The notes: a model not told the origin generated them from the sequence alone. Numbered from the stretch's first letter, positions 4,586 to 19,136 are shown. The stretch is DNA of 64,000 bases from Elusimicrobiota bacterium (GCA_043819795.1 JBDREN010000083.1:1-64000), one strand, 5' to 3'. Program-made: numbers and translations.

Positions 4586-4691
4586 GCAATCCTCCCTGCG
4601 GCCTCTAAGCCCGGACAAGAACGCCGTCCGGACGTTATTAATCTTATATCAAGGACGAGGGCGGACTGTCAACCCGACGGACCTCCTCCGG

Positions 4692-4856
4692 TTAGGGCTC
4701 GTTACGAGATAAACGGATGAATTTTGGGCGTCGAGGCGCCCGGCTGGCAAGGAGCGAGGAGCGAGCATTCCCGTCGGTATGCGAGCGACGAGCGACGCAG
4801 CCAGACGGGATGCATCGGCGTCCAAAAACGTTCGCTTATTTCGCAACGAGCCCTTA
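4692..4856. mobile_element. MITE-like element, family B
   Basis: TIRs GGGCTCGTTACGAGATAA / TTATTTCGCAACGAGCCC (2 mismatches), flanked by TTA on both sides. Non-coding. Confidence 0.8.
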
Positions 4857-4871
4857 GAGCGGGATTTCGGC

Positions 4872-6011
4872 CTATCTCGCGAGCGCCTGCCAGCCGGTGC
4901 CCGGCGGCGGCCGCACCCTCAGGCCTCGCCCCGCGGCCGGCAAGCCCGCGGGCAGAGGCCGGTGCCGGCCGAGCTGCGCCGTGAAGATCCCCTCGCGGGC
5001 CTTGACGTACACGGACTCGCTCCAGAGCTCAGGGGCGGACGTCTCCGAACCGGCCAAGGCGAAGCTAAGCAGGTAAGTGCCGCTCTTGGGCTTGCCGTCG
5101 GCGTCCAGGAGCATCCCCCGGAATCTCCGCGTGCGCCCTTCGGGATCGCCGCCAAGGACGTGCTCGACGACGCCCGGCGCGAAGCGCACCGTCATCTCGC
5201 CGTCCTCCCAGGAGGCCGAATACCGGACGGGCTCAACCAGGTCGAAGACCACCCGCGTGATCGGCACGGGCTCCGACTCGAACTGGCCCGAGCGGACCCC
5301 CTTCAGGAAATCCCCGTCTCCCGGACGGGAGCGGTCGAGCGCCGCGTGCTCCGTCTTCATGAGGTCCACCACGAGGCGGGGCGGATCCTTCGCGACGAAG
5401 GCGCTGTACGGGACCGGCCGGTCCAGCTTGAGCCGCACCTGGTCGGCGCCGACCTCGACGCCGCGCAGCGAGGCGACCCTCGCGGGCACGGGCGGCAGGG
5501 GCGAGAGGATCCCGAGGGCCCGTCTAGCCGGGGAGCTCTCCGAAGCCGGGCCCGACAGCGGCCCCAGAGCGTCCTTCAGGTCGCCGGGGACGTCGGGCAC
5601 GAGGCGCAGCGACATCTCGGACCCGAGCCAATAAGTCCAATAGCGCGCCTCGGCGCTCAGGTCGAGTACGATCCGCGTCACCGGCACGGGATCGGTCTCG
5701 AACTGACCGCTGCGGACGGCGCGGAACGGCGCGCCCCGCCCTTCCCACAAGCGCGGCGCCGCGTCGTGGACGGTATCGAAGAGGTCGACCACAAGGCGCG
5801 GCGGGTCGTGGAGGAGGAAGGTCGCGTGCCGCGCGGGGTTGTCCAGCGAGATCTGAATCCCGTCCGAGAAGACCTGCACGCCCTGGAGGACGCTTTCCGC
5901 CAGCGCCTGCCGGGGCGGCAGCGCGGACGCGACGACGAACGCGGCCAGCAGAGCCCCGGCGGCCGTGCGGGTGCCGCACCGGCAGACGTCTAGGTTTTTC
6001 GGTTTCATCAT
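4872..6011 (-). CDS. Exported protein with two AMIN domains and a C-terminal beta-sandwich-like domain
   Basis: Signal peptide. Two copies of DPPRLVVDL...VRSGQFE..PVP.TR.V.DL. Confidence 0.85.
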   Translation of the reverse strand: MMKPKNLDVCRCGTRTAAGALLAAFVVASALPPRQALAESVLQGVQVFSDGIQISLDNPARHATFLLHDPPRLVVDLFDTVHDAAPRLWEGRGAPFRAVRSGQFETDPVPVTRIVLDLSAEARYWTYWLGSEMSLRLVPDVPGDLKDALGPLSGPASESSPARRALGILSPLPPVPARVASLRGVEVGADQVRLKLDRPVPYSAFVAKDPPRLVVDLMKTEHAALDRSRPGDGDFLKGVRSGQFESEPVPITRVVFDLVEPVRYSASWEDGEMTVRFAPGVVEHVLGGDPEGRTRRFRGMLLDADGKPKSGTYLLSFALAGSETSAPELWSESVYVKAREGIFTAQLGRHRPLPAGLPAAGRGLRVRPPPGTGWQALAR

Positions 6012-7676
6012 TTAGAACATTACCCTCAGGTTGAAGGATGTACGGTCGTCTTTGTAGTTGAACTGGCCGCTGAAGCGCGAATGGCGCTGCCGCCGGCCGT
6101 AGGCGATCCCGGTGGACAGCCAGCGCCGGACCGCGTAGTCGGCGCTCAGGGTCCCGCCGTAGAGATCGTCGCGCCGGTTGGCCGACTCCCCGGACACGGT
6201 GGACGACTCCGGGTAGCGGTCGGTCTGGAGGCTCCCGTCGATGGACACCTTCAGCTTGTGGTACGTATGGCTGGCGCCCAGGCTGGCCCCCGTCGCGACG
6301 TAATAACGGTTGCTGGAGAAGGTCGCCTCGTTGATCCTGCGGAACGCGCCGATCCGCACATTGGTGCGGCTTCCCGGGGCGTAGACCAGCTGGACGGAGG
6401 TCAGCAGATTCCGAACGTCCCTGTCGCCGCCGGCGGGGGCGTAGTCGTAGCGGCGCAGCTGCGCGTCGGCCTGGACTCGCCCCGAGAGCTTCGCCGTCAG
6501 GCGCCCGTCCACCCCCAGCCCGAAGCGGTGGGACTTCGAATGCTTCCGCGCTCCCGCGGAGTAGTGGATGATCTGGCGGCCGTAGGCGGCGAACAGGCGC
6601 GTCTTCGGCTGCAGCCGTATGCCCGCCTCGCCTTCTATCGAAAGCTCGAAGCGGTTGAGGTTAGAGGAAAGAGACGGGTCGAGGTACTTGTGCAGCACGT
6701 GCAGCCCGGAAAGCTTGTAGACGAAGCGCCGGCTGCGGGCGTGATCGACGCTCACGCCGAGATCGGCCTTCGTGCGCCGCTTCCGGGCGACGAGCTCGCT
6801 GAAGGCCGGGTCCTCCGTGTTGAGATAGGTCTCCCACGCGCGCATCGAGACGCCCCTGCGCCCCTTGTGGGCGAAAGCCACCTTGATGAGCTGATCCACG
6901 GAGTTGTTGGCCTTCGGCTGCCGGGAGTACGTGGTCAGCTTCGAGTCGTAGACCACGTCCAGGCGGTTGCGCCGGTTGAACGGGACGGCGAAGTCCGCTC
7001 CCAGGTTGTTCTGGGTGATCCAGGAGCTCCTCACTCCTCCGCCGGTGCGAGCCCCGTTCGCCCTGTCGGGCGGGACGAGATAGATGTTCGAGTCGTATGT
7101 CTGCCTCAGGCCGTAGTACGGATGCACCTCGATGACCAGGCGCAGCTCCGGCTTCTTGAAGCGCGCCATCTTGTCGAAGGCCCTGGCCAGCCCGGCGAGC
7201 GGGTCCCAGGCGGCGGGTGGAGCGGGCTCCTCGGGGAGCGGGGGCCTGAGGGGAGCGGGCAGCTCTCCGGCCTTGGGCCCGGTCAGAGGCACGAACTGCC
7301 CGGCTCCGACACCGACGGCGGCCGCGCCGCGGGGGGTGACCTCGACCTCCCCGGCGTGGACGAGCATATGCCCCTCCCCTTCCGCGATCAGGAACGTGAA
7401 CGAGTCGCCCTTGTCCGCGCGGACCAGCGTCTCCTCCACCAGCAGCAGAGCGTCACCCTCGACGATGGACGCGCGCGCGCCGGAAGGCAGAGAATAGCCG
7501 GAAGAACCGGGAGCGAGGCGGACCGGCCGCTTGTCCACCTCCAGGAGCAGCTTGTCCGAAAAACCGATGACCTGCAGCTTCAGGTCCGCCTTCGTTTGAG
7601 CCAAGCAGGTGTTCGCCGCGATGAGAAGGCCGGCAGCCGCTATACAAGCGCGGATACTCCGGTCCCAGTCAATCAT
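6012..7676 (-). CDS. Outer-membrane beta-barrel protein (BBP2/DUF2320-like) with a FecR-like N-terminal region
   Basis: Signal peptide from ATG 7676. YDSNIY motif, alternating beta-strands and terminal Phe (FNLRVMF). Confidence 0.75.
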   Translation of the reverse strand: MIDWDRSIRACIAAAGLLIAANTCLAQTKADLKLQVIGFSDKLLLEVDKRPVRLAPGSSGYSLPSGARASIVEGDALLLVEETLVRADKGDSFTFLIAEGEGHMLVHAGEVEVTPRGAAAVGVGAGQFVPLTGPKAGELPAPLRPPLPEEPAPPAAWDPLAGLARAFDKMARFKKPELRLVIEVHPYYGLRQTYDSNIYLVPPDRANGARTGGGVRSSWITQNNLGADFAVPFNRRNRLDVVYDSKLTTYSRQPKANNSVDQLIKVAFAHKGRRGVSMRAWETYLNTEDPAFSELVARKRRTKADLGVSVDHARSRRFVYKLSGLHVLHKYLDPSLSSNLNRFELSIEGEAGIRLQPKTRLFAAYGRQIIHYSAGARKHSKSHRFGLGVDGRLTAKLSGRVQADAQLRRYDYAPAGGDRDVRNLLTSVQLVYAPGSRTNVRIGAFRRINEATFSSNRYYVATGASLGASHTYHKLKVSIDGSLQTDRYPESSTVSGESANRRDDLYGGTLSADYAVRRWLSTGIAYGRRQRHSRFSGQFNYKDDRTSFNLRVMF

Positions 7677-7786
7677 CCTGGACGATGGGCGCGCCGCATC
7701 CGATAGCGATTCCTCCTTACGACGACAATCCGGCAAGAAAAACGCCGCGGCGCCCCCCGCGGGGGGGTTTGTCGCGGCGTCAATGG

Positions 7787-7813
7787 TCCTAAAGTCCTTA
7801 TAGGACTTTTGGG
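7787..7813. promoter_or_regulatory. Palindromic putative operator AAAGTCCT-tat-AGGACTTT
   Basis: Perfect 8-bp inverted repeat (7791-7809) in an AT-rich gap upstream of the beta-barrel gene. Confidence 0.55.
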
Positions 7814-7901
7814 AACATCGAAGGATAACCGAAATTACGCGATTTGTCAAGACTCTACACGCTCTTTTCGCAAAGTAGCCTTACTGTGGCGGAGCCTGCC
7901 C

Positions 7902-8675
7902 TCACCTCTTGACCACCGGCACCAGCAGCTTCTGGCCCGGCGTCAGCTCCCCTCCGCGCTGGATCCTGTCGTGATTGGCCTGATACAGCTCGATCCAGCG
8001 CTCGGCGCTCCCGTAAAGCTTGGTCGCGATGCTGCGCAGCGTGTCTCCCCGCCGGACCACGTAGATCCGCGCCCGCGACTCCTCGGAGGGAAGGCCCCCG
8101 TCGCGGAGCGTGGCCTCGATGACGTCGAGGCGCTTGCGCGACTCCTCGGCCTCGCGCTTGGCGCGGCGCGCCTCCGCCTGGGCCTCTTCGACCTCCCTCT
8201 TGAGTTTGTCGAGCTCCTCGGACGACGGAGCGGGGACCTCGACAGAATCCCCCGCCTGCCCCGGATCCGGCGCGGCGGCCGCCGGCGCCTCGACCTGGAT
8301 CACCTCCGGGGGACGCGAAGCCTTGGCCGCCCAGCCTGTTCCCGGCGGGGCCTCCACCGTCAAGCGGTAAGCCGCCGAGAGCGCCTCTTCGGGGATCGCG
8401 GAATCCTCTCCCAGGGTCGCGATGAAACGCCCCTTCTCGGCCAGAACGTAGCGGGACTCTCTCCAGACCTCCTTGCCACCGGCGAATTCGTTCCAAAGGC
8501 GGAAGTGCAGCAGGAAGGTCCCGTTCTGCGGTTGGCCTCCGGAATCGGTGAGCTCCCCGGAATATCGCAGGGTCGTCCTGCCCGCGGATGCCGGCAGACA
8601 CAGGATCATGACCGCCAGGGCCGCCAAAGCGCACGGACGAACGCCGGATGTGGATGTGTCGCGCGTCGTTCTCAT
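7902..8675 (-). CDS. Exported LysM peptidoglycan-binding protein
   Basis: ATG 8675 overlaps the upstream stop (ATGA). Signal peptide, coiled coil, and C-terminal YVVRRGDTLRSIA...LYQAN...LTPGQKLLVP. Confidence 0.9.
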   Translation of the reverse strand: MRTTRDTSTSGVRPCALAALAVMILCLPASAGRTTLRYSGELTDSGGQPQNGTFLLHFRLWNEFAGGKEVWRESRYVLAEKGRFIATLGEDSAIPEEALSAAYRLTVEAPPGTGWAAKASRPPEVIQVEAPAAAAPDPGQAGDSVEVPAPSSEELDKLKREVEEAQAEARRAKREAEESRKRLDVIEATLRDGGLPSEESRARIYVVRRGDTLRSIATKLYGSAERWIELYQANHDRIQRGGELTPGQKLLVPVVKR

Positions 8676-9922
8676 GGGATCTCCTCCCGTATTCGTTCTT
8701 CGAAGGCCGACAAGGGCCGGACATGGACGGTGCCGGAGCCGTCCCGGCCCATCCATACGTCGTCGCCCCGCAGCGTGAAGCCGGACAGCGGCGCCCCCCC
8801 CTCGTTCAAGAGCGGGAGGCTGTAGACGGCCAGGACGCCCAGCCTGGCGTCGAGCCGGTGCCTGTAGATCATCCGCGTCTCCGAGTCGGCCGACCAGAAA
8901 TACGAGCCGTCCTTGAAGATGGAGGAGGGGGCCCTGCCCGGGGCCGGATAGCTCTCGAGCACCGTCAAGCCGGCGTCGATCCCATGCTGATAGAACCGCC
9001 GCTCCGAGGCGTCGCTGGACCACAAGTAGCGACCGTCGAAATAGACCCCGGCGGGGTTCGGTCCCGGGCTCCGATAGGCGCGCACGAGAGAGAAACGCTC
9101 GTCGAGGCGGCGCTTCTGGATCTCGCGCTTCCAGGAGTCGCATACGTAGAGATGCTCGCCCGAAACGGCGATCCCCGTGATATGCGTCTCCGGCAGGTGA
9201 ACGGAGCGGACGACCTCGAGGCGGTTGCCCCGGCGCTCGTACTCGTAGACGCTCTGCGTGACCCAGTCGGCGCTCCAGAGCCGGTCCCCGCGCCAGACAA
9301 GCGCCGTGGCGTTCTCGTGGGGGATGGCGAAATCCCTGCCCGCCTGCCGTCCGTAGAGCGTCCAGAGGATCCAGGCGCAGAACGCTCCCGCGATGAGCGC
9401 GCCCGCCAGCAGCCACGGCCACCCGGACGCTTCGCGCTTCGCCGGCCCGGCGGACCGGCCGCGCGCCGGCAGAGGCGCGGGACGGGCGTCCAGCGGCGCG
9501 ATGACCCCGCGGACCTTCTCCGCGAGACGGCGTCCGAGGACTCCCATCCCTTCCGGAGCCTTGCCGCCGGTGAGAACGCGGTCCACGGTCTCCCTCAGCT
9601 CCCGGTTGCTGAAAGGCTTGGCCAGATAGTGGCTCGCGCCCAGCTGCATGACTTCCACGGCCGACTCCACGCTGCCGTAGCCGGTCACCATCACGACCGG
9701 CGTCGTCCCATCGACCTCCCGAAGCTTGCGCAGGATCTGCACGCCGTCCATCCCCGGCAGGCGCATGTCCAGCAAGACGAGGTCCGCGCCCTCGCGGGAC
9801 AAAAACTGCAGCGCGGTGGGGCCGTCCCCGGCCTCGTAGACCTGGTGACCCAGCCGGCTAAGGACGTTCGCGAGCGCCATCCGCATGTCCGCTTCGTCGT
9901 CTACCACCAGGATGCGTGCCAT
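8672..9922 (-). CDS. Response regulator receiver fused to a TM helix and an extracytoplasmic beta-propeller-like domain
   Basis: ILVVDDE, LLDMRLPGMDG, MVTG, LAKPF. TM WLLAGALIAGAFCAWILW. Repeated LWSAD/LYVCD/LWSSD/FWSAD blades. Confidence 0.85.
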   Translation of the reverse strand: MARILVVDDEADMRMALANVLSRLGHQVYEAGDGPTALQFLSREGADLVLLDMRLPGMDGVQILRKLREVDGTTPVVMVTGYGSVESAVEVMQLGASHYLAKPFSNRELRETVDRVLTGGKAPEGMGVLGRRLAEKVRGVIAPLDARPAPLPARGRSAGPAKREASGWPWLLAGALIAGAFCAWILWTLYGRQAGRDFAIPHENATALVWRGDRLWSADWVTQSVYEYERRGNRLEVVRSVHLPETHITGIAVSGEHLYVCDSWKREIQKRRLDERFSLVRAYRSPGPNPAGVYFDGRYLWSSDASERRFYQHGIDAGLTVLESYPAPGRAPSSIFKDGSYFWSADSETRMIYRHRLDARLGVLAVYSLPLLNEGGAPLSGFTLRGDDVWMGRDGSGTVHVRPLSAFEERIREEIP

Positions 9923-9923
9923 G

Positions 9924-12900
9924 TCATCCTCTCTTCGCTTCGACCGAAAGCGTCACAGTCGAGGTGCTGCCCGCGTCCTTCTTGCTCCGGAACTCGAAGG
10001 AACCGCCGTGCGCCGCGACGATCCGTTTCGCGATCGCCACGCCCAGCCCCAGGCCGCCGGCCTTCATGGTGTAGAACGGCCGGCCCACATCCTTGACGTG
10101 CTCCGGCGCCACTCCGGCGCCGGTGTCGGAGACCTCGACGCGGACGGTCCCGCGCGCCGCCTGATAGCGGGCCCTGATCGTCAGAGTGCCTCCCTCCGGC
10201 ATCGCCTCGATCGAGTTGAGCAGCAGGTGCAGCAACGCCTCCTTGAGCCGCTCCGAATCGCCGCGAAGCTCCGGGACACCCTCCGCGACATCCGCCACGA
10301 TCCTGATATGCTTCTCGTCGCACTGCCGGGCGACCTCCGCGACGGCCGAGTCGATCCACGCCTCGACCTCGAGCGCCTGCGGCTTCAGGCCCAGGGGGCG
10401 AGTGAAGTCCGTGAGCTGCTCCAGACGCTCCCGCAGGTTCCCGATCGCCCGGAGGATGGCGTCCATGGTCGCGCGCTCCTTGCCGCCGACCCACAATCCG
10501 GAGAGCCGGTCCTCCGCCAGGCTCTGGATGATGCCCAGCGGGTTGCGGATCTGATGGGCGATCCCGAAGACGAGATCGGTGAGCTCGGTCTCGAAGGCCA
10601 CCTGCGGCAGGCGCCCCGTCTCCGCCTCGGGCTTCAGCCCGGAGAGCAGCCGGTCGCGCAGCTGACGGAGCTCCCTCTGCCGCCGCTCGATGTCGACCTC
10701 CGCCCCGGCAAGCTTGTCCTCGCGCCCCTGGGACTGCCTTTCCCTGGCCGTCATCTCCTCATCGAGCTTCCGGCGACGACGCTCGAGCTCGGCCTCCTCA
10801 TTCTTGAGCCGCTCGCGCAGCTTCTTGTCCGTCCCCCGCAAGAGCTCCTCGACTTCCTCGCGGCGCCGCTCGACCTCCGCTTCCTTCTGAGCGGACTCGT
10901 CCATGAGGCGCTTCTCGCCGGACTGCTCGCGCTCCTTGAGCGCCTTATCGCGAGCGTCGAGCTCCGCCTCCCTCTTGTGAAGCTCGGACGACGCGGTTTC
11001 CTGCTGCTTCTGCAGGCGCTCGCCTTGGAGCCGCGCGGTCTGCTCGACCTGGACGGCGCTCTGCTCTTCGAGCTCCTTGCGGCGCTCATCGAACTCAGCC
11101 TCGAGCCTGGTGCGCTCCACCACGAGCCTCTTGCGGTTGGCGGCCAAGAGGGCCGACTCCTTCTCGGCCAGGACGGTCCGCATCTCGCGCTCGAGCTCCT
11201 CGCGACGCCGCGCCTGGTCCTCATCCGCCGCCCTCTGCGACTCGCGCAGCAGACGGCGCTCGTGCTCGAGCTGCGCGTCAAGGTCCCGCTCGTGCGCCAA
11301 ACGGCGCTCCTCCCCCTGCTTCTCCAGGAGGTCCTCGCGCTTGCGCAGCTGATCCTCCAGGCTCTCCGCGTGCAGGCGGAACTCCTCCTCCTTCTCCTTG
11401 AGCTGCGCGCGGAGATCGTCCTCTTTGGTCTGCAGATCCCGGTCGTAACGCGCGCGCTCCTCGCGCCGGATGCCGCGACGCGCCTCCTCGACCTTGTGCA
11501 GGAACTCCTTCTGAAGCGCGGCGCGCTCGGCGTCGAGGCCCTCCTCGCGCCTGGCCATCTCATCGCGCAGAGCGACGTGCATCTCCTCGGACGACTTGCG
11601 CAGCTCCGCGCGGTTGCGCTCCTGAGCCTCGCTGACCTCATTGAGCAGCGCCTCCTCCCGCTTCTTCCACGCGCGCTGAAGCTCCTCTTCCCTGCCCAGA
11701 TGCTCCCGCTGCAGGGCCGTCTCGCGCTCGCGGAAGTCGCGCTCGAGCTCGGCGCGGCGGGCGTCGAGCCCCGCACGGGCGCGCTCGAGCGCCTCGCGCT
11801 CCGCCGCGACGGACTGCCGCAGGTCGCTGCGCTCCCGCTCCAGCTCGGCCTCGCGTTCCTCGACCGACTCGCGCATGGCCGTCTCCTTGCGCGCGTAGGC
11901 TTCCCGCAGCTCCGTCTCCCGGGCCTTCAGCTTCCGGCGACTCTCCTCGACCTCGACCTCGAGCTCGGCCTTGGCCTTCGCCCAATCCTCCCGCAACGCC
12001 TCCCGCTGCGCATCGAGATGACCCGAGACCTCCGCCTCGGCCTCCTCGCGCGCGCGCCGCAGCTCGGCCTCCTTCTCGCTGACCGCCTTCTCCAGAGCCC
12101 GCTCCCTCTCGCGGTACTCCCGGGCCACTCCGCTCTTAAACGACTCCAGCTCCCGGGACCGCCGCACCTCCTCGGCCGCGAGCTCGGCGCGCTCCCGCTC
12201 GAGCTCCCCGTGACGCGCCTGGTAGGCGGCCTGCAACTCCTCCTGCCGGTTGCGATACTCGGCCTCCAGGCCGGCCCGGGCCTTTTCGACGTCCCGACTT
12301 CGCTCCGCCAGCGCGGCGCTCTTGCTCTCGATCTCCCGGACCTGCTCCTGCCGCTCCCGCTCGAAGCGCGCGGCCAGCTCGGTTCTCTGGTCGGCCAGCT
12401 CCTTGCGAAGCTCGGCCTCGCGATGAACGAAGGACTCCTCAAGAGCCTGCTCGCGCTTCCGGAGCGAATCCTCCACACGCTTTTGGGCCGCCCCCAGCCC
12501 CTCGGTCTGGCGTTCGAGCTCGGCCTGACGCGCGCGAACGCCCTGCTCCTGCTTCTGCTGCTCCATGGCCAGAGCATCGCGAAGCTCGGCCTCGCTCTGC
12601 GCGAACGACTCCTCAAGAGCCTGCTCGCGTTTCCGGAGCGAGTCCTCCACGCGCTTGCGGGCCGACTCCAACTCCTCGGTCTTACGTTCGAGCTCGGCCT
12701 GACGCGCGCGAACGGCCTGCTCCAGCGTCTGCTGCTCCGCGGCCAGCGTCTCGCGGTCGCGCTCGAAGCCGGCGCGCAGCTCCCGTTCGCGCAACGCCGA
12801 GGCGGAACGCACCCCCTCCTCCCGCGCCCGGAAGGCGTTCTCGAGCTGCGTCTCGCGCTCACGCAGGCTTTTCTCAACCTGTAATTTGGACGCGTCGAGT

Positions 12901-15900
12901 TCCCGCATCCGCCGCGCCAGCTCCGCCTCGAGGCGCTCGCGCTCAGCGGCGAGCTCCTCCTCTTTCTGCCGGACCGCCGATTCCACCTCGGCCGCGCGGT
13001 CGCCGTGCTCGCTCTCCAGCAGCGACCGCCGGTGCGCGAGCTCTTCTTGGAAAGCCTTGCGCTCCCGCTGCGTCCGGGCGGAAAGCTCCGCGTCCCGCTT
13101 GGCGAACCCCGCGCGCAGCTGTTCCTCCCGCGCCGAGTAGGCGCGCTGCAGATCGGCCTCACCCTCCCGCGCGCGCTCCTCGAGCGCGAGGCGAGCCTCC
13201 TCGAGCGCCTTTTCCTTGCGCGCGAGCTCGTCCTGTCGCTGCTCGGCGGCCTGATCGAGCTGCTTTTCCTTATATATGAGCTCGGCCTGGCGCTCGGCAA
13301 GGACGCGCTCGTGCTCCTCGTACGTCTCCTGAAGCCGCCGGCGCTCCTCGACGAGCGCGGCGCGCAGCTCGCTCTCTCGAGCCGCCAACGCCGAGCGCGA
13401 CTCCTCCTTCCGCTTCTCGAACTCGCGCTCGAGCCGCGCCTCGCGTTCCTGCAGCCTCTTTTCCTCGTCCATCCGGGACGTCTCCAGCTCGCGCTTCTTG
13501 CGCCCCGTCTCGTCCTCGATGCGGGTGCGCTCGCGCTCGATGGCCTCCTCCCTCCCGCGCAACACCAGGTCCATCTCACGCTGACGGTCCTCGAACGCCC
13601 GGTGCATCTCGGCGCGCTCGCTCTCCGACTCCACCTTGCGCCGCTCAAGACGCTCCATGGCCTGGGCGCGCTCGTTGTTCGCGGCGTCCTCGCGCTTCCG
13701 GAAGTCCGACTCGAGCTCCGATAGACGCTGCTGGTGGGCCTTCTCCAGATCAGCCTCCTGGGACCGGATCGCCTTCTCCAGCTCGAAACGCAGGCGGTCC
13801 AGCTCACCCTCCCTTCGGTCGTACTCGGCCTCAAGCGCGGCGCGCTGCTTCTCAAGAGCCGCCTCGAGCTTCCGTCGAGACTCGTCCTCCCAGCGGGCCT
13901 CGCGCTCGTTGAGACGCTCCGTGAAGGACCTGAGCTCGGCCGCCAGGCGGTCCTCGGCCTCGCGCTTCGAAAGATCCTGCTTATGCTCCCATTCGGCCTT
14001 CAACTCGGCCTCGAGCTGGAGGAAGTTCTTCTGAAGCGCATCTTCGCGCTCCCGGTAGAGAGCGTCGAGAGCGGCCCGCTCGCGGGACTGATTGTCCTGC
14101 ATCTCGGAGACCATCGCCTGCTCGCGCCGACGCAGATCCTCGCCAAGAGACTCGTCCTTGGACTTGTACTCAGCCTCGAGGGCCTGCCTCCGCGAGTCAA
14201 GGTCCTTGACGCGCGACTCCAGCTCGGCGGCCTGCGCCGCCATCGCCTTGCGATGCTCCTCCTGGAAGTGCTGGTACTCCTTCGCGATCTCCCTGCGCTG
14301 ATGGTCCAGCCAGGCGTCGTTGCGCTTCTTCATCTCCGCGCGGGACTCCGCGAGGCGGCGCTTGTACTCGCGCTCGAGATTGTCCTGCTGGTTCTTCAGC
14401 TCGGCTTCCCGCTGGGCGATCGCCTCGCGCATCTCGCCTGCGATGCGCTCGGTCTCGTAGCGTATGCGAGCGCGATAGCTCTCGCGCTCCTCGTCGACCT
14501 TCTGCAGCAGCTCGCTCTCACGCTGGCTCCACCGCTTCTCGAGCTCAGCCTCGCGCTCGAGATAGGACTTATCCAGCCTCGTCTCCTTCTCCCGCATCTC
14601 CTTTTGGAGCTGCGCCTGCAGCTTCTCCAGCTCCAGCTGCTTGCGCTCGTATTCCTCCTCCAGGACCGCACGTTGCGACTCGAGCTGCGCCGCCCTCTTG
14701 ACCTCGAACTCGGCCTCCGACTGGCGGACCTTGCGCTGGATCCCGTCCTCCTGCTCCTTGAGCGAGCGTTTGAGCTTCTCGGCGGACTCCTCCTCCAGGA
14801 GTTGGGCCTTGTGCGCCCGGTCATCCTTCAGCTGCTTCTCGAGGCTCACATAGTTCGAATGCAGGGTCTCCTCGCGGCTCCGGTAAAGCTCGTCGAGGGA
14901 CTGACGCTCCCGCGTCAGGACGACCTGCTGCTCCTCGATGAAGCGTCTCTCCCTGAGACGCCACTCGTCGGCGAGCTCCTCCTCCCGCTTCCGGTGGTAA
15001 GCCTGGAGGGCGTCGCGCCGCTTGGCCAGCTCACCCTCCCGCTCGTTCGACTCGGCGTTGAGCGCCTCGAGGTGGGCGCGGGCGTGCTCCTTCTGCTGCT
15101 CCCGTTCGCGGATGGTCATGCGGCGCTGGCGCTCCAGCCACTGCTCCTTCTCCTTCTCGGACTCGGCCAGGGCGTCTCTCTTCCAAGCTTCGAACCGCAC
15201 CGCCAGCTGCGAGTCCGCCTCCGCGAGGGCCGCGGCGTGCTGCTCCCGCTCCTTCTGACGCTCGGCCTCGAGCGCCTGCACGGTCTCCGCGAAGCGCTGC
15301 GCCTGCGCCTGGAGGGCTTCCTGCCGCCGCGAGAGGTATTCCCTCTCCTTGCCCGTCCATAGCTCCTGAAGGCCGCGCTCCATCTCGATGTACTTCTCCT
15401 CGCGCTGGGCTTCTCGGCGCTTCTGGGCCTCCTGAATGGAGACGCGCTCCGCCTCGTGCCGGCGCTCGCGCGACTGCAGGTCCTCCCAGAGCGCCCGCTT
15501 CTCCGCATCCAACTTCTCGAACTCTTCGCGGACGCGGCTCAGCTCCAGATCCTTCTCCGAAAGCTGCTTCTCGCGCTCCAGGAGCTCGCTCTGATGCCCT
15601 TCCTTCAGGTTCTTGACCCGAAGCTTCCACTCGGCCTCGCGCCGCTCGTACTCGGCGTCCAGGTGCCTGGCCTGCTGGAGCAGATGCCGGCCCTGCGCCT
15701 CCTTGAGCGCCCGGACCTCCGCGGCGTGAGCGTCCTTGGCTTCGGCCTCCCGGCGATCGTAGCGGTCCTCGAGGTCCCGCTCCAGGCGCGCGTAATCCTG
15801 CTTCATCTTCTCGGACCGGCCGAAGAGATCGGCCTCATCGCGCTGGCGCCGCTGGTCGTGCTCCTCCTTCGTCTTCTCCATCTCCATGCGGGCCGCGCGG

Positions 15901-17522
15901 CGCACCTGCTCCAGCGCGATCTCGTAGCGGCGCACCAGCTCGGCCTCCCGCAGGTGCCACTGCTTATCGAGGTTCTTCTCCTTCTGGATGTACTCCGAGA
16001 TCACGGTCTGCTTCCACGTCCGGAACTGCTCCTCGATCGTCTGCTGGGTCCTCTCCAGCTCGGCGACCCGGGCCTGGTAGGCCTCCTCGAGCGTCCGGTC
16101 GCGCTGCTCGAACTGCGACTTCAGGGAAGCCCGCTCGGCCTCGACGGCCTTCTCATGCTCCTCGAGGAGCTCCATCTTGCGGCGCGTCCACTCCTCGCGC
16201 AGCGCGTTCTCCTTCGCCAAGTACTGCTCCTGCATCTCCACGTGCTTGTGCTGGGAGGCCTCCTCGAGCGCCTTCTCGCGCTCTTGCACGCGGTTCTCGG
16301 CCTCCGCCCAGCGGGCGTTGAACTCGGCTTCGAGGGCGGTGCGTTGGCGGTCCCCGTCGCGCTGGACCTCGGCCTCCCGCCGCTCGAGGTCCCGGGACCG
16401 CGCCTGATACTCCTCCTCGAGGGCCTTGGCGCGCTGTCGCGCCCGCTCGGCGGCTTCCGCCTTTTCCTTCTCGAGCTCGTCCTCGACGCGCTTGAGCAGC
16501 TGCGCCTCCTTACGGATGTGGCTCTGCTGCTGCTGGGTCTCCATCTCGGCGTAACGCGTCTCCACGCTCTTCACACGCTTCTGGAAGTCCTCCTCCAGCT
16601 CCCGACGCCGGCGCTCGAGAAGCCCTTCGATCTCGCGCGAGCGGTCGGCCAGCGCGCGGGCACGCTCCTCGAACTGCTCCTGCACGGCCGTATCCAGCTT
16701 CTCACGCGCATCCTTCGCGCGCTGCCACAAGCCGTTCTCGAGCTCCGCCCAGGCGGCCTGCAGCTCGGCCTCGCGCTTGCCGTACTTCTCCTGCAGGGCG
16801 AGCTCCTTGGACCGGAACTCCCCGAAGAGCTTCTCCTCGCGCTCCTGGAGCTTGAGCTCGCCCTCCTTCGCGGCGGCGGCCAGCACCCGCTGGAACTCCT
16901 CGTTCTTGCGCCTAAGATCGAGTATCTCGCGCTCCTTGAGCTCGAGCTCCGCCTCGCGGTTCTTCAGCGTGTTGAGGATCTCCTCGTCGCGTTTCTGGCG
17001 CAGCCGCTGCACCATATCCTGGTCGCGGTGGAAACGGTTGACGAGCTCGGCCTTCTCGCGCTGGGAGGCCATCAGCTCGGCGTCGCGCTGCTCGAGAATG
17101 CGCCTGAGCTCCCGCCACTGCTCCTCCTTGGAGCGGTGCGTGCCCTTCCACTGCTGGACCTCTGCCGTCAGGCGGGACAGCTCCTCGTCCATGTGCCCGC
17201 GGTCGCGCTCCACGCGCGTCCGTTCCTCTTCGCGGACCTCGAGACGCACACGGTCGCGCCAGCGCTGCTCCTGATCCCGATGATTCTTGCGCTCCTCCTC
17301 CCAGCCTTTGGACTCGTCCTTCCATGCGGCGACCTGTCTCGTCAACTCCTCCTTCTCCTGCTGGAGCATCTGCTGTCCGTTCTGGGCTTCCTGGAGGTTC
17401 CCCTTGAGGCGCACATTCATATCCTGGAGGTCACGGATCGTGGCCACGGCCCCCCGGATCGCAAGTCGCGCAGCTTCCAGATCGGTTATCTCTCGATATG
17501 CCTCTTCATCCCATGGGTTCAT
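9924..17522 (-). CDS. Giant (2,532 aa) coiled-coil protein with C-terminal HisKA and HATPase_c domains
   Basis: About 2,300 aa of E/R/K/Q/L/A-rich heptad-like sequence. Then AHQIRNPL, LLLNSIEAM, DTGAGV, PFYTMK, GLGLG. GGGAGG SD before ATG 17522. Confidence 0.9.
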   Translation of the reverse strand: MNPWDEEAYREITDLEAARLAIRGAVATIRDLQDMNVRLKGNLQEAQNGQQMLQQEKEELTRQVAAWKDESKGWEEERKNHRDQEQRWRDRVRLEVREEERTRVERDRGHMDEELSRLTAEVQQWKGTHRSKEEQWRELRRILEQRDAELMASQREKAELVNRFHRDQDMVQRLRQKRDEEILNTLKNREAELELKEREILDLRRKNEEFQRVLAAAAKEGELKLQEREEKLFGEFRSKELALQEKYGKREAELQAAWAELENGLWQRAKDAREKLDTAVQEQFEERARALADRSREIEGLLERRRRELEEDFQKRVKSVETRYAEMETQQQQSHIRKEAQLLKRVEDELEKEKAEAAERARQRAKALEEEYQARSRDLERREAEVQRDGDRQRTALEAEFNARWAEAENRVQEREKALEEASQHKHVEMQEQYLAKENALREEWTRRKMELLEEHEKAVEAERASLKSQFEQRDRTLEEAYQARVAELERTQQTIEEQFRTWKQTVISEYIQKEKNLDKQWHLREAELVRRYEIALEQVRRAARMEMEKTKEEHDQRRQRDEADLFGRSEKMKQDYARLERDLEDRYDRREAEAKDAHAAEVRALKEAQGRHLLQQARHLDAEYERREAEWKLRVKNLKEGHQSELLEREKQLSEKDLELSRVREEFEKLDAEKRALWEDLQSRERRHEAERVSIQEAQKRREAQREEKYIEMERGLQELWTGKEREYLSRRQEALQAQAQRFAETVQALEAERQKEREQHAAALAEADSQLAVRFEAWKRDALAESEKEKEQWLERQRRMTIREREQQKEHARAHLEALNAESNEREGELAKRRDALQAYHRKREEELADEWRLRERRFIEEQQVVLTRERQSLDELYRSREETLHSNYVSLEKQLKDDRAHKAQLLEEESAEKLKRSLKEQEDGIQRKVRQSEAEFEVKRAAQLESQRAVLEEEYERKQLELEKLQAQLQKEMREKETRLDKSYLEREAELEKRWSQRESELLQKVDEERESYRARIRYETERIAGEMREAIAQREAELKNQQDNLEREYKRRLAESRAEMKKRNDAWLDHQRREIAKEYQHFQEEHRKAMAAQAAELESRVKDLDSRRQALEAEYKSKDESLGEDLRRREQAMVSEMQDNQSRERAALDALYREREDALQKNFLQLEAELKAEWEHKQDLSKREAEDRLAAELRSFTERLNEREARWEDESRRKLEAALEKQRAALEAEYDRREGELDRLRFELEKAIRSQEADLEKAHQQRLSELESDFRKREDAANNERAQAMERLERRKVESESERAEMHRAFEDRQREMDLVLRGREEAIERERTRIEDETGRKKRELETSRMDEEKRLQEREARLEREFEKRKEESRSALAARESELRAALVEERRRLQETYEEHERVLAERQAELIYKEKQLDQAAEQRQDELARKEKALEEARLALEERAREGEADLQRAYSAREEQLRAGFAKRDAELSARTQRERKAFQEELAHRRSLLESEHGDRAAEVESAVRQKEEELAAERERLEAELARRMRELDASKLQVEKSLRERETQLENAFRAREEGVRSASALRERELRAGFERDRETLAAEQQTLEQAVRARQAELERKTEELESARKRVEDSLRKREQALEESFAQSEAELRDALAMEQQKQEQGVRARQAELERQTEGLGAAQKRVEDSLRKREQALEESFVHREAELRKELADQRTELAARFERERQEQVREIESKSAALAERSRDVEKARAGLEAEYRNRQEELQAAYQARHGELERERAELAAEEVRRSRELESFKSGVAREYRERERALEKAVSEKEAELRRAREEAEAEVSGHLDAQREALREDWAKAKAELEVEVEESRRKLKARETELREAYARKETAMRESVEEREAELERERSDLRQSVAAEREALERARAGLDARRAELERDFRERETALQREHLGREEELQRAWKKREEALLNEVSEAQERNRAELRKSSEEMHVALRDEMARREEGLDAERAALQKEFLHKVEEARRGIRREERARYDRDLQTKEDDLRAQLKEKEEEFRLHAESLEDQLRKREDLLEKQGEERRLAHERDLDAQLEHERRLLRESQRAADEDQARRREELEREMRTVLAEKESALLAANRKRLVVERTRLEAEFDERRKELEEQSAVQVEQTARLQGERLQKQQETASSELHKREAELDARDKALKEREQSGEKRLMDESAQKEAEVERRREEVEELLRGTDKKLRERLKNEEAELERRRRKLDEEMTARERQSQGREDKLAGAEVDIERRQRELRQLRDRLLSGLKPEAETGRLPQVAFETELTDLVFGIAHQIRNPLGIIQSLAEDRLSGLWVGGKERATMDAILRAIGNLRERLEQLTDFTRPLGLKPQALEVEAWIDSAVAEVARQCDEKHIRIVADVAEGVPELRGDSERLKEALLHLLLNSIEAMPEGGTLTIRARYQAARGTVRVEVSDTGAGVAPEHVKDVGRPFYTMKAGGLGLGVAIAKRIVAAHGGSFEFRSKKDAGSTSTVTLSVEAKRG
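12405..12720 (-). repeat. Internal tandem duplication with 174-bp (58-aa) period in the giant kinase
   Basis: CGTTCGAGCTCGGCCTGACGCGCGCGAACG occurs at 12511 and 12685. VRARQAELER...KRVEDSLRKREQALEESF occurs twice. Confidence 0.9.
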
Positions 17523-17628
17523 GGTCGCCTCCCATGGAGATGGACGCGGCCATCCCCTGCGCGATGCTCGGTCATGGTCGCCTCCCACGGCAGTCGACGC
17601 GACCATTTCCTGCGCTATGCTCGGTCAT
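17519..17628 (-). repeat. Two tandem 53-bp mini-ORF/SD cassettes upstream of the giant kinase
   Basis: ATGs at 17628, 17575 and 17522. The units encode MTEHSAGNGRVDCRGRRP* and MTEHRAGDGRVHLHGRRP*, each ending in an ATGA overlap. Confidence 0.85.
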
Positions 17629-17844
17629 AACACTGCCTCCAGGTAGATACGTCCGCCCCCCACGATGGGGCGATGCCCTATAGCACGAACTCTCTCTTCA
17701 ACGTTAGTGTATAGCCGCAACCGGAAAAATCAAGCACTCTCAGCCATTACTTGGCCGAGCCTCGGCGGGTTCCCAGATCCGACTCCTAGCCTAGGGAAAG
17801 GATAACGGGGGGTAATTACAGATTCTTTAACGAAAATCGGGGCC

Positions 17845-18071
17845 TAACAGTCCGTGGCAAAAGTCTTCCGGGGCCTGCGATCGCCTGGATGCGGCCTGCG
17901 CCCGCGTTGCTCCTCGGTCACACCGGGCCCCGGCAGGGGCCCAGTGCCGCACGACCTCAGGAAATGCTTCGGAGCGCTGTCATCCCGTAGAGGGATGCTA
18001 CCTCGTCGCGCCTTGGCTCGGCTCGCCCCGGACGATTTCGCCATCCGAAATACTTTTGCCACGGACTGTTA
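17845..18071. mobile_element. MITE-like element, family A (complete, with a 60-bp internal insertion)
   Basis: Perfect 20-bp inverted repeat TAACAGTCCGTGGCAAAAGT, including the terminal TA. Homologous to 1-138. Its end overlaps the stop codon of the PAS kinase. Confidence 0.85.
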
Positions 18072-19136
18072 AGGCCGCGATCGAGCGGGGAAGACAACGG
18101 TGACGGCCGTCCCTCGGCCGGCCTCGCTGTCGAAGGAGATGGTCGCCTCGTGCTCGGCCAGGACGCGCTTGGCGAGATAGAGCCCCAGACCCGTGCCGTC
18201 CTCTTTGGTCGTGAAGAAGGGCGCGCTGACCTTCGCCAACACCTCGGGCGCCATCCCCGCGCCCGAGTCCCCCACGACGAGACGCGCCCCCCCCCGCTCC
18301 GGGACGTCCGTGACGACGCGCAGGCGCCCCCCTTTCGGCATGGCCTCGATCGCGTTGACCAGCAGGTTATGGACCACGGCGCGGACATGCTGCTCGTCGA
18401 GGAGCAGTCTCGGGATGTCGCCGAGCCGCACATCGAGCTCGATCCGCTGCTTCTGGCACATCTTCTCGACGAGACGGACGACGCCGCGCGCCACCTCGTT
18501 GAGCGAGCCCTCGCGCAAGAGAGACTTCCCCACCTTGGCGAAGTCCAGAAGGGCCCGTATCGAAAGCGACCCGTGCCGGGCGTTGCGGAGGATCATCTCG
18601 AGGTTCTCTTTCATCTTGGAGTCGGGGGAGAGGGACTCGAGCCCGAACTCGGCCGTGCTGGCGATGACGTGCAGCGGCGTGCGCATCTCGTGAGCGAAGG
18701 TCGCCGCCATTCGCCCGACAGCGCTGAAGCGCTCCATCCTGACCAACGCCTCCTGGACGGCCTTGTGCTCGGGGGCCGTCTCGAAGTCGGCCACGGGGGG
18801 GCTGATCATGACGAGGAAGGCCTCGGGGCCCTTCCCCAGCGAGCGGACGGTCAAGAACACCCTTTCCGGGCTCCCGTCGCGGCGCGTCATCCGCGCCTCG
18901 TAGTTTTTGAGCACCTTCACGTTGCAGGCCGCCTTGAGCAATCCGACGCATTCCTCCCGCCTCGGGAAGAACTCCGCGAAGTCGCGATCGACAGCCTCCT
19001 CGAGGGGGACGCCAAGGAGCTCGGCGGCTCCGCGGGACCACGTCCGGACCACGCGGGAACCGTCGAGCCCGACGAGCGCATCCTCGGACTCGTCGAACAT
19101 GCAGGCGAAAAGGCGGTCTTTCAACCGTTCTTCCAT
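18069..19136 (-). CDS. PAS-domain sensor histidine kinase (cytoplasmic)
   Basis: PAS (WSRGAAELLG, RRDGS), AHEMRTPL, NLLVNAIEAM, DSGAGM, PFFTTK, GTGLGL. Confidence 0.92.
   Translation of the reverse strand: MEERLKDRLFACMFDESEDALVGLDGSRVVRTWSRGAAELLGVPLEEAVDRDFAEFFPRREECVGLLKAACNVKVLKNYEARMTRRDGSPERVFLTVRSLGKGPEAFLVMISPPVADFETAPEHKAVQEALVRMERFSAVGRMAATFAHEMRTPLHVIASTAEFGLESLSPDSKMKENLEMILRNARHGSLSIRALLDFAKVGKSLLREGSLNEVARGVVRLVEKMCQKQRIELDVRLGDIPRLLLDEQHVRAVVHNLLVNAIEAMPKGGRLRVVTDVPERGGARLVVGDSGAGMAPEVLAKVSAPFFTTKEDGTGLGLYLAKRVLAEHEATISFDSEAGRGTAVTVVFPARSRP

Follow-up and report, generated by a model that had tools for sequence, protein, structure and literature searches.

The question raised by this locus is whether six neighbouring genes of an Elusimicrobiota bacterium, the largest of which encodes a giant coiled-coil protein with a histidine-kinase-like end, constitute a single system, and if so, what that system might do. 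The window (the whole 64-kb stretch of DNA analysed) holds the six ORFs, all on the minus strand, at 4872-19136; they have the domain contents that an initial annotation ascribed to six co-directional genes. Its placement of the products in cytoplasm, inner membrane, peptidoglycan and outer membrane agrees with the locations predicted from domain evidence, and the tight junctions it listed are exact (a 1-bp gap at 9922/9924, an ATGA overlap at 8672-8675 and abutment at 6011/6012). The run is not unbroken, however: two gaps that went unmentioned, of 546 bp and 225 bp, divide it. The features, with the evidence for each, are as follows.

18069..19136, minus strand: PAS-HisKA-HATPase kinase, 355 aa, with a canonical H-E-x-x-T box (Pfam, H-box alignment)
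17836..18081, no strand: inverted-repeat element within the 546-bp gap, dispersed over about 39 genomic sites; lies outside the system
17515..17630, no strand: another dispersed repeat (about 14 genomic sites), upstream of and close to the start of the giant
9924..17522, minus strand: giant 2,532-aa protein with N-terminal motif, coiled coil and HisKA/HATPase core (ORF, Pfam)
17379..17522, minus strand: N-terminal motif of the giant, also in three other coiled-coil proteins of the genome
10653..17465, minus strand: coiled-coil rod with 3.67-residue (hendecad) periodicity (periodicity against shuffles)
9927..10592, minus strand: HisKA/HATPase core with an H-Q-[IV]-R-N box, a phosphatase-type signature (alignment of 15 orthologues)
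8672..9922, minus strand: receiver-linker-single transmembrane-propeller protein, 416 aa (Pfam, hydropathy)
9569..9922, minus strand: receiver domain (family alignment, 80% mean column identity)
9356..9412, minus strand: single transmembrane segment, aa 171-189 (hydropathy)
8693..9346, minus strand: beta-propeller, predicted periplasmic (AF2 pLDDT 92.5, Foldseek)
7902..8675, minus strand: exported protein with signal peptide, 'YG' domain, coiled coil and LysM (Pfam, sequence analysis)
8319..8570, minus strand: fibre-type 'YG' domain (PF30789-like) of the LysM protein (homology to the genome's fibre proteins)
7917..8063, minus strand: LysM domain (Pfam), closest to the LysM of a phylum-wide barrel-LysM gene
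7822..7850, minus strand: sigma-70-like site preceding the barrel gene, by consensus alone (10/12)
6012..7676, minus strand: signal peptide, FecR-like domain, Pro-rich linker and 18-stranded BBP2_2 barrel of EpsX/EpsL type (Pfam, AF2)
7287..7577, minus strand: FecR-like beta domain (ESM Atlas, TM 0.64-0.74)
6018..7130, minus strand: 18-stranded barrel (AF2 and structural search)
4872..6011, minus strand: exported accessory protein with signal peptide, two AMIN domains and C-terminal 'YG' domain (Pfam)
4878..5129, minus strand: second 'YG' domain, in the AMIN protein (85-aa alignment with the LysM protein's copy, 43.5% identity)

The 546-bp gap lies between the PAS kinase and the giant and holds both dispersed repeats, the second of which accounts for a false longer start of the giant at 17606; orthologues of the giant begin at the same Met. 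The LysM and barrel genes stand 225 bp apart, compared with 0-170 bp in relatives, and this interval contains the region's best sigma-70-like site (7850-7822). A PilT-like ATPase gene adjoins the locus across the order. The repeats and promoter-like site in the two long gaps, together with the absence of the AMIN gene from five family loci, would fit an ordinary kinase-regulator pair lying by chance among unrelated envelope genes. This explanation, which we hold to be extremely improbable, is largely refuted by the retention of gene order across the phylum and by the joint loss of the parts even where they are unlinked.

The initial annotation named scattered homologues as evidence against its proposal; instead, the giant, receiver-propeller, YG-LysM and FecR-barrel genes follow in order in 13 of 16 family genomes (whole or cut by a contig end), and a three-gene core extends across the phylum. 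Among 60 relatives the YG-LysM and fused barrel genes are found in the same 16 genomes, 15 of which have the receiver-propeller orthologue, and all 14 giant cores lie in receiver-propeller genomes; thresholds for these sets were fixed after gaps in the E-values had been seen, and the genomes are kin rather than independent samples. In family f2 all four parts occur in just two genomes of 38 (G034 and G052), with the barrel gene unlinked in both. One genome, 97% complete (G007), has no part of the module while its sister (G013) has them; another (G022) has kinase and receiver with no barrel found. On a tree of 31 genomes, module presence changes at least three, probably five, times.

Of 20 distant loci chosen by propeller match, 14 keep the order of the phylum core (outer-membrane barrel-LysM, coiled-coil HisKA protein and receiver-transmembrane-five-bladed propeller), as does G124. 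The locus is an expanded form of this Elusimicrobiota-wide module, in which the phylum-wide third gene, a barrel fused to LysM, is replaced by the YG-LysM and FecR-barrel genes. The PAS kinase (an order- or family-level addition) and the AMIN gene (a family-level addition) are accessory and lie outside the core. No description of a module with such composition was found in the literature searched. Across many lineages of a little-studied phylum it joins a cytoplasmic rod, an anchored receiver, and wall and outer-membrane anchors, and a conserved multi-layer envelope assembly is the probable explanation.

The giant's coiled coil, about 2,270 aa long, has hendecad periodicity (z=10.1 at 3.67 residues and z=-1.7 at 3.5; 100 shuffles); the first 2,320 aa contain three prolines, and as one continuous helix (0.148 nm per residue) the rod would measure about 340 nm. 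Myxococcus AglZ and Caulobacter PodJ and TipN are long coiled coils proposed to organise a cell site. The polar scaffold Scy of Streptomyces is described likewise as a very long non-canonical coiled coil and proposed organiser (PMC3718342); the likeness drawn is one of architecture, and unlike Scy the giant has a HisKA end and belongs to a diderm envelope module. The N-terminal part of the rod persists in at least 13 relatives as a kinase-free protein of 400-2,300 aa with no receiver partner, which points to a separate function of the rod itself.

The description of the giant as a histidine kinase stands with respect to its HisKA/HATPase core and its length, but the H+1 acid needed for autophosphorylation in tested kinases is missing. 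The phospho-accepting His and the N, G1, F and G2 boxes are invariant in 15/15 orthologues, and in all 15 the acidic residue required of a canonical autokinase is replaced by Q at H+1, followed by Asn at H+4 (H-Q-x-x-N). In 20 further module cores H+1 is Q, R or K, or the His is lost, and is acidic in none; H+4 Asn is kept in 18. Within this genome E or D occupies H+1 in 52 of 57 aligned H-boxes, and Q in the giant only. Caulobacter DivL and PleC reportedly offer a kinase-dead or pseudokinase comparison. A HisKA core likely not autophosphorylating and linked to a coiled-coil scaffold is the point of likeness with kinase-dead CrdS E372Q and NtrB E140Q (PMC3510030) and with Streptomyces PsmA (PMC12963549). 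CrdS E372Q is described as phosphatase-competent, and N375 as needed for that activity (PMC3510030). Unlike these variants, the giant keeps the His, loses the H+1 acid and keeps the H+4 Asn naturally and phylum-wide, the rod attached to module cores reaches about 3,100 residues in length, and the partner is a membrane-anchored receiver. Judged by these residues, there is a good chance that the giant has no working autokinase; most likely its HisKA end dephosphorylates the receiver or docks on it, rather than phosphorylating it. A preprint cautions that the H+1 rule may fail for some HisKA types, and the PAS kinases of two relatives (G012 and G006) carry H-Q beside an intact, adjoining NtrC gene, so H-Q may not always mean kinase-dead. 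No hydrophobic segment is present in the giant or the PAS kinase (hydropathy over 19 residues reaches 1.16 at most), and both are predicted to be cytoplasmic.

The receiver has D8, D9, phospho-Asp52 and Lys102 invariant in the family alignment, with T or S at 80; these residues (acidic pocket, phospho-Asp, Ser/Thr and Lys) suggest that it is phosphorylatable. The architecture claimed for this protein is upheld by an AF2-supported propeller and one hydrophobic segment, and a hydrophobic maximum lies 221-233 aa before the C-terminus in 17/17 family members, although it is weak (<1.6) in three. The propeller has no Pfam match. Its closest Foldseek structures are 3mbr, 3nok and 2iwa, and its nearest solved fold is the five-bladed type I glutaminyl cyclase (TM 0.70-0.72, 12-16% identity), a comparison by fold alone, with glutaminyl cyclase absent from its PDB sequence matches. 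Classical transcriptional output is absent: the receiver is followed by a transmembrane segment and propeller and no DNA-binding domain, and Pfam gives Response_reg only, with no GGDEF-EAL input domains.

Tol-Pal and OmpA-type tethers bring together a periplasmic propeller, a wall-binding outer-membrane partner and an inner-membrane anchor. The locus resembles them in these three elements (PMC12204202), but has no TolQR/ExbBD motor or TonB/TolA gene, and its five-bladed-type propeller is itself membrane-anchored and receiver-bearing; no MotA/TolQ/ExbB motor or TonB-like transducer was found among the annotated window genes. LapD, as described in PMC3032553, is similarly an inner-membrane protein with cytoplasmic input and periplasmic output; the degenerate GGDEF-EAL domains that serve as its input have no counterpart in the locus protein. 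Here, in contrast, the input would be REC Asp phosphorylation instead of c-di-GMP and the output a propeller, and no LapG or LapA gene was seen at this locus. Within the same genomes, paralogues combine N-motif, coiled coil, transmembrane segment and propeller in a single chain, and the HisKA/REC pair may thus be a phosphorylation-controlled coupling inserted into a rod-to-membrane anchor.

In this order the adjacent PAS kinase, with its H-E-x-x-T box, is by sequence the likely phosphodonor. Its orthologues occur in 11 of 60 relatives, all 11 module-bearing, and H+1 is acidic in 11 of the 13 PAS kinases compared. The full kinase is missing from several module genomes (none at the G013 locus; PAS-less forms in G010, G052 and G008), and in distant lineages without it other donors must serve. 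At this locus there is, as previously claimed, no DNA-binding regulator; this does not extend to relatives, three of which carry an NtrC-type sigma-54 activator (REC-AAA-HTH) between PAS kinase and giant, in the place occupied here by the 546-bp gap element. Orthologues of this NtrC above the E-value gap lie beside the PAS kinase in five of 60 relatives; tblastn found no NtrC remnant in the gap. A tree of receivers gave no tie between the propeller receiver and the NtrC of the PAS kinase, which counts against the scheme preferred here.

This adjacency raises the possibility that signalling runs from outside in, the propeller sensing the envelope while receiver and phosphatase drain phosphate from the PAS kinase or other kinases, tuning the sigma-54 regulator, with transcription as output. 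The two receivers are alike in their first helices and beta5-alpha5 loops (42% identity), and FecR domains pass outer-membrane signals inward in known systems. We nevertheless consider such a phosphate sink unlikely: neither this genome nor most of the module genomes yielded an NtrC orthologue, most distant core loci show no DNA-binding regulator in the matches examined, and the receiver-free rod-transmembrane-propellers suggest a structural output.

The FecR-like outer-membrane barrel was correctly recognised, with ESM Atlas matches backing the N-terminal domain and AF2 the 18 strands. FecIRA cell-surface signalling (TonB-dependent receptor, membrane anti-sigma, ECF sigma) was considered and rejected: the barrel is 18-stranded, the FecR-like domain is on an exported protein and the locus has no sigma gene. 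AlgE is the joint best structural match (Z 21.6, rmsd 4.1, 320 aligned), level with the OccAB4 porin; EpsX is likewise reported as 18-stranded and AlgE-like (PMC9601211). The TIGR03014 EpsL match is below cut-off. The barrel is 41% identical to a paralogue adjoining a Poly_export gene, and at the genome's other export locus (C177) the FecR-like domain is a separate gene preceding an unfused barrel paralogue. As modelled, the barrel appears to be of polysaccharide-export type.

A second conserved locus (contig C10) has a short OPX-Wzc pair, without a barrel, ahead of a paralogous rod-transmembrane-propeller whose rod shares the giant's N-terminal motif. The OPX has 233 aa (criterion <=280), its SLBB ends at aa 228 with no membrane-spanning C-terminal domain, and it matches the EpsY model below cut-off. 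Such a pair precedes a rod-transmembrane-propeller, with no barrel, in 9/9 loci of sufficient length, and the fused barrel is present in all 13 relatives with a C10-type pair, the fused gene being the sole such barrel found in eight relatives; G034 and G052 have the fused barrel with no C10-type OPX above threshold. In G028 a LysM-fused barrel, OPX and Wzc are consecutive, the latter two 63% and 60% identical to the C10 pair; neither this genome nor the 13 stretches examined from the family show barrel and OPX genes adjoining in this way. In G101, which belongs to another class, an OPX-Wzc pair again stands first in a series of genes for coiled-coil, REC, LysM and transmembrane-propeller proteins. 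No Wzx, Wzy or glycosyltransferase genes were seen in the window locus or the OPX-Wzc stretch. The pair may work with the locus barrel in trans, and on balance we lean slightly towards the barrel serving it. A short-OPX/beta-barrel polysaccharide exporter is a candidate for the unnamed 'envelope structure' of the initial annotation. The Myxococcus EpsY/EpsX and Vibrio VpsN/VpsM translocons, as described, share the 18-stranded AlgE-like barrel with signal peptide and a short Poly_export-SLBB OPX (233 aa here) with a Wzc-type partner in the same genome (PMC9601211); here, unlike there, the barrel is fused to a FecR-like domain and sits apart from the OPX in a signalling locus with wall anchors, and OPX-Wzc precedes a rod-transmembrane-propeller.

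Taken to its full extent, the proposal is an envelope-spanning phospho-switch: the kinase-like end of the long cytoplasmic rod, a predicted phosphatase, would control the membrane-anchored receiver, and the propeller, predicted periplasmic, would locate or gate a barrel that is tethered to the wall and likely serves polysaccharide export, the gating signal coming from inside the cell. We advance this whole chain, from rod through receiver and propeller to exporting barrel, tentatively, as somewhat short of an even chance. The core barrel of the phylum is PorV-like and fused to LysM, export genes are absent from most core loci, and no BBP2 barrel was found in four of five distant module genomes tested, which rules out polysaccharide export as the general function. 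The module could instead be a general envelope tether or landmark joining membranes and wall at a single place, be it pole, septum or pilus base, its phospho-switch serving assembly. The PorV-like core speaks for this, as do the PilT-like neighbour, the failure to find the module in the two largest families sampled (0/88 and 0/89), and a paralogous module (C131) with a dead receiver, which implies that the scaffold can persist without signalling. We judge a general tether somewhat unlikely; under it, an export-type barrel would have taken over the anchoring role of the PorV-like one and would export nothing. It leaves unexplained why OPX-Wzc stands at a locus with no barrel and co-occurs with the fused barrel, as well as the G028 arrangement.

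Under the phospho-switch proposal, the wall tether would be supplied by the LysM and AMIN proteins. Their LysM and double AMIN domains had been noted, but the YG domain of about 85 aa that they share was overlooked; it may dock both wall anchors onto the barrel protein. Homologues of the YG domain form the N-terminal domain of collagen, fibrinogen and S74 fibre proteins encoded by this same genome, in all the N-termini of nine fibre-like ORFs, and the YG profile recovers the genome's fibres at E 1e-10 to 1e-3. Both fibre-like ORFs tested (2/2) match the NCBIfam model Bdello_MAT_N (NF053851) below cut-off, a related family whose Bdellovibrio members form MAT fibres and for which binding of the N-domain to an unknown surface element has been proposed (PMC10769870). 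The barrel might then export or anchor MAT-like adhesive fibres by this domain, with YG-LysM and AMIN-YG tying the fibre base to the wall. Fibre display is very unlikely in our estimation: the locus YG domains are a diverged subgroup, of which one in 22 touches Bdello_MAT_N (E 0.07), weaker fibre-type matches occur also in genomes without the fused barrel, and the fibre genes sit elsewhere, beside PorV-like and sorting-signal genes. Unlike the MAT fibres described (PMC10769870), the locus domain is attached to wall-binding LysM or AMIN domains, in one case at a C-terminus, and no trimeric fibre shaft or tip is present. In G034 and G052 the YG-LysM gene occupies the barrel-LysM position, directly before the giant, and its LysM scores 102-162 with module barrel-LysMs against 92-108 with most C131-type paralogues.

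All six open reading frames, with the domains that the initial annotation had assigned to them, are present on the minus strand:

18069-19136, minus strand, PAS kinase
9924-17522, minus strand, giant 2,532-aa coiled-coil protein with a C-terminal HisKA/HATPase core
8672-9922, minus strand, receiver (REC)-TM-propeller protein
7902-8675, minus strand, YG-LysM protein (YG being a fibre-type domain, PF30789-like, absent from the initial annotation)
6012-7676, minus strand, FecR-barrel protein, a FecR-like domain fused to a BBP2_2 barrel
4872-6011, minus strand, AMIN-YG protein

The three tight junctions lie exactly where they had been placed. The description of a tight run holds at these three and fails elsewhere: the PAS kinase and giant genes are separated by 546 bp, and the LysM and barrel genes by 225 bp. 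Within the latter gap lies the strongest sigma-70-like match in this region; in relatives the LysM-barrel spacing is 0-170 bp. The former gap contains two repeats, one of them (17836-18081) found at about 39 and the other (17515-17630) at about 14 places of the source genome. Together with a third dispersed family (4620-4871, about 11 places) they are MITE- or REP-like and frequent at contig ends. A start at 17606 for the giant and one at 7850 for the barrel, each giving a longer protein, were ruled out by orthologue starts and the coding model.

The His, N, G1, F and G2 boxes of the giant's kinase core are intact; in all 15 orthologues, however, the residue following the histidine (H+1) is Gln, and H+4 is Asn. 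Among the 57 H-boxes of the source genome with an aligned histidine (a further 12 rows without one were left out) 52 carry Glu or Asp at H+1, and Gln occurs in the giant only. We compared 20 further cores of the module, that is, of the set formed by a barrel-LysM protein, a coiled-coil HisKA protein and a REC-TM-propeller protein: 17 from distant genomes, one from G124 (a genome outside the order) and two from paralogous modules. Here H+1 is Gln in 11, Arg in six and Lys in one, the histidine being lost in the remaining two, and Asn stands at H+4 in 18. In CrdS the same Glu-to-Gln change is reported to abolish kinase activity while phosphatase activity is retained, the Asn is required for the phosphatase, and NtrB E140Q is cited as a similar case (PMC3510030). 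Because the H-box state matches that of the CrdS variant, the residues suggest a phosphatase or docking role for the giant's core. Two counterpoints bear on this rule: Gln also follows the histidine in two PAS-kinase orthologues, and a preprint cautions that the H+1 rule may not extend to every HisKA type. Those two PAS kinases (L025:3271-4518 and L032:16669-17730, both loci of relatives) have an intact NtrC-type regulator alongside.

The latter arrangement raises the question of whether the locus is a phosphate sink for a sigma-54 regulator. PAS-kinase orthologues occur in 11 relatives, all with the module, and an NtrC-type activator in five relatives above the E-value gap. A tree of REC domains did not tie the propeller receiver to the NtrC of the PAS kinase. 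No such activator was found in the source genome, nor a remnant of one in the 546-bp gap; G010 and G052 have PAS-less forms in the position of the PAS kinase, and the locus of G013 has no PAS kinase. We regard a sink as unlikely.

The giant lacks hydrophobic segments, and its first 2,320 residues include just three prolines. Hydrophobic residues recur with a period of 3.67 (z 10.1 relative to 100 shuffles), whereas 3.5 is unsupported (z -1.7); the protein is thus a coiled coil of hendecad type, about 340 nm long if continuous. Its named relatives are Elusimicrobia MAGs. Residues 1-200, which carry a conserved N-terminal motif, have a single strong match in 45 of 60 relatives, and beyond the order in one of about 235 genomes (G124, with a giant of about 3,370 aa). 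Examination of 30 of the matched loci revealed seven complete rod-kinase fusions (1,797-2,859 aa) and, in at least 13, a kinase-free protein of 400-2,300 aa in the giant's place. Conversely, three distant genomes encode a rod-free HisKA core (217-231 aa), and in two genomes the motif-bearing rod and a rod-kinase are separate adjacent genes. A shortened giant in G007 (L054:12395-16255) has the ATPase domain and no recognisable H-box; that genome has no other module genes.

The N-terminal motif also occurs on three further coiled-coil proteins of the source genome. On contig C190 (40899-44618) a 1,239-aa pure coiled coil with the motif follows sugar-nucleotide and glycosyltransferase-like genes, and similar N-termini stand at the module head in G227 and G178. 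On C131 (40150-43323) three adjacent genes encode two coiled coils, the first with the motif, and a short TM-propeller. Contig C218 (1-36813) holds a reading frame that stays open for at least 12,270 aa; genes that we take to be FlbD-, MotA- and MotB-like lie nearby.

The REC domain retains all phosphorylation residues. All 17 family members compared have a hydrophobic stretch 221-233 aa ahead of the C-terminus, which is weak in three of them. The C-terminal domain is modelled as a propeller (pLDDT 92.5), whose nearest folds are the five-bladed propellers of type I glutaminyl cyclases (12-16% identity); against PDB sequences its profile gave weak LDL-receptor-family matches only. Given a cytoplasmic REC and a single TM segment, the propeller would be periplasmic. 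To our knowledge, it is rare for a response regulator to act outside the cytoplasm. A 50%-cluster search with a limit of E 1e-10 gave 2,206 relatives of the propeller; among 53 homologues 13 bear Elusimicrobia names and one a Planctomycetota name. The family occurs in 80 of 301 genomes of the phylum and 25 of 34 families; the two largest families sampled yielded no match (0/88 and 0/89 genomes). Both are presumably host-associated; listed genomes of the first measure 1.2-1.7 Mb.

Paralogues of the propeller protein are either single rod-TM-propeller chains or carry a dead receiver. As a reading of the locus, a plain envelope tether seems to us rather doubtful. One paralogous module of the source genome (C131:12346-15065) pairs a PorV-like barrel-coiled coil-LysM protein with a degenerate REC-TM-propeller; this pair is present in nine of nine relatives' loci extracted for it.

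With thresholds placed after the fact at E-value gaps, YG-LysM and the fused barrel mark an identical set of 16 genomes among the 60 relatives, 15 of which have a REC-propeller orthologue; every one of 14 giant cores lies in a REC-propeller genome. The AMIN-YG gene follows the barrel in five contiguous loci, and probably two more, and is missing in five. A tree of 31 giant N-termini needs five changes of label, three forced by strong branches; G024 may be mislabelled as without the module, since that genome is 79% complete. Farther afield, 20 distant loci were picked by best propeller match, and 14 have the order barrel-LysM, (coiled-coil) HisKA, propeller protein, with the receiver replaced by TPRs in one and degenerate in another; a further three consist of HisKA and REC-propeller alone, and two of these lie near contig ends. 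G124 combines barrel-LysM, its 3,370-aa giant and REC-propeller. The barrel of this phylum-wide core is PorV-like. In the face of such recurrence, a chance neighbourhood is very improbable, and we think a conserved envelope-spanning assembly likely. G005 (C65) and G008 (C34) contain additional paralogous modules, in which two barrel-LysM genes are combined with a coiled-coil HisKA of 570-610 aa and a pair of propeller proteins.

An 85-aa YG domain (43.5% identical) is common to the LysM and AMIN proteins. In predicted structure it matches the N-termini, labelled PF30789, of collagen, fibrinogen and collar proteins (TM 0.71-0.77); by sequence, its profile had no match among solved structures (best E 0.11). 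The profile finds 12 ORFs in the source genome: the two of the locus, one AMIN-YG paralogue and nine fibre-like N-termini. Both fibres tested match Bdello_MAT_N below the cut-off, and the locus copies hardly match it. The MAT N-terminal domain is described as having no PDB homologue and as presumably binding an unidentified surface element (PMC10769870). Display of fibres as the function of the locus, to which this kinship might point, seems to us quite improbable. In G034 and G052 YG-LysM lies directly ahead of the giant, the position of barrel-LysM, and its LysM is closest to those of module barrels; on these grounds, the barrel may have been swapped for YG, with the FecR-barrel gene as new outer-membrane partner. 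The nine MAT-like N-termini lie on contigs C15, C37, C69, C81, C82 and C96, with S74 chaperone, collagen and fibrinogen tips; several adjoin PorV-like barrels and proteins whose C-terminal domain is T9SS-like. A predatory or adhesive lifestyle is possible.

The barrel model has 18 strands, and a VIA-align fold search with the barrel part only placed AlgE and OccAB4 level (Z 21.6); AlgE is also the closest structure reported for EpsX (PMC9601211). A paralogue 41% identical lies in another export locus of the source genome (C177), with a separate FecR-like gene on one side and a Poly_export gene on the other. On contig C10 a 233-aa Poly_export protein (short OPX) and Wzc precede a motif-bearing rod that runs off the contig. 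In relatives this rod and a TM-propeller like that of C221 form one chain of 950-1,200 aa, so the two contigs probably split one gene; the order OPX-Wzc-rod-TM-propeller holds in nine of nine loci long enough. No barrel gene was found in the 13 OPX-Wzc stretches of the family examined. In G028, however, LysM, fused barrel, OPX and Wzc stand in a row, the latter two sharing 63% and 60% identity with the C10 pair; in this genome one YG-LysM gene has a lone FecR-like gene after it. The C10-type OPX occurs in 13 relatives, every one of which has the fused barrel; three more have the barrel without that OPX at the threshold used, one at a contig edge. In G101, of another class, OPX-Wzc heads a run of coiled-coil, REC, LysM and TM-propeller genes. 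Such a barrel was not found in four of five distant module genomes tested, and export is therefore at most the source family's use of the module. Ahead of the OPX, the C10 locus (7847-12814) also encodes SpoIID-TPR, RpiB-like and KdsC-like proteins, in this order; the C221 TM-propeller (12511-13400) starts at the contig end, a TM-CBM48 gene being next.

Observed are the order of the genes, their domains, the H-box residues and the joint presence; in the mechanism that we propose, enzymatic activity, signal direction, every contact and the export role are putative. Phosphorylation of the membrane-anchored receiver would most likely come from the PAS kinase or from another donor. The rod end would strip the phosphate or bind one receiver state, and the rod would in this way become linked to the membrane anchor, a link that is permanent in the single-chain paralogues. 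Next, the propeller would contact the wall-tethered barrel assembly; in the source family this assembly would likely complete a short-OPX exporter. We advance the whole chain tentatively. Bolder, and doubtful though possible, is that Elusimicrobiota hold an undescribed two-component class without transcriptional output: a HisKA phosphatase on a rod of up to about half a micrometre would clutch a transmembrane receiver; phosphorylation would couple or uncouple a cytoplasmic skeleton and a wall-tethered outer-membrane barrel; the switch would have captured a split polysaccharide translocon in the source family, and the MAT fibre N-terminal domain would be a docking module on the barrel.

On the tests that define each, the locus is neither a classical transcriptional two-component pair nor a LapD, FecIRA or Tol-Pal system; in structure it agrees with a short-OPX barrel translocon, gene adjacency excepted. 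A Myxococcus receiver controls polysaccharide synthesis after translation by a different route (PMC12802240). Each domain family is already known; judged by domain composition, the combination appears to match no system in the literature covered (mostly open-access), where we found no description of such a system, nor anything on one in passages of 10.1101/2023.11.21.568195 and PMC12204202. If true, the mechanism would be a new two-component wiring: a receiver with its sole output beyond the membrane, and a phylum-wide partner kinase that lost its catalytic acid in several ways and kept the phosphatase Asn. The module is a candidate envelope organiser, of which the two largest families sampled gave no example.

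Three neighbouring regions of the window deserve mention. An exported-looking protein of about 1,730 aa (20465-25705), without a match in Pfam, has a hydrophobic middle part and Lys/Ala-rich repeats. A 296-aa protein (19326-20216), without a match in Pfam or NCBIfam, is 55-75% identical across the order, and its gene is almost always in divergent orientation to that of the giant or of the kinase-free form. An exported Cys-repeat protein for which no family match was found comes after a PilT-like ATPase (699-2854), and both are kept beside the locus across the order.
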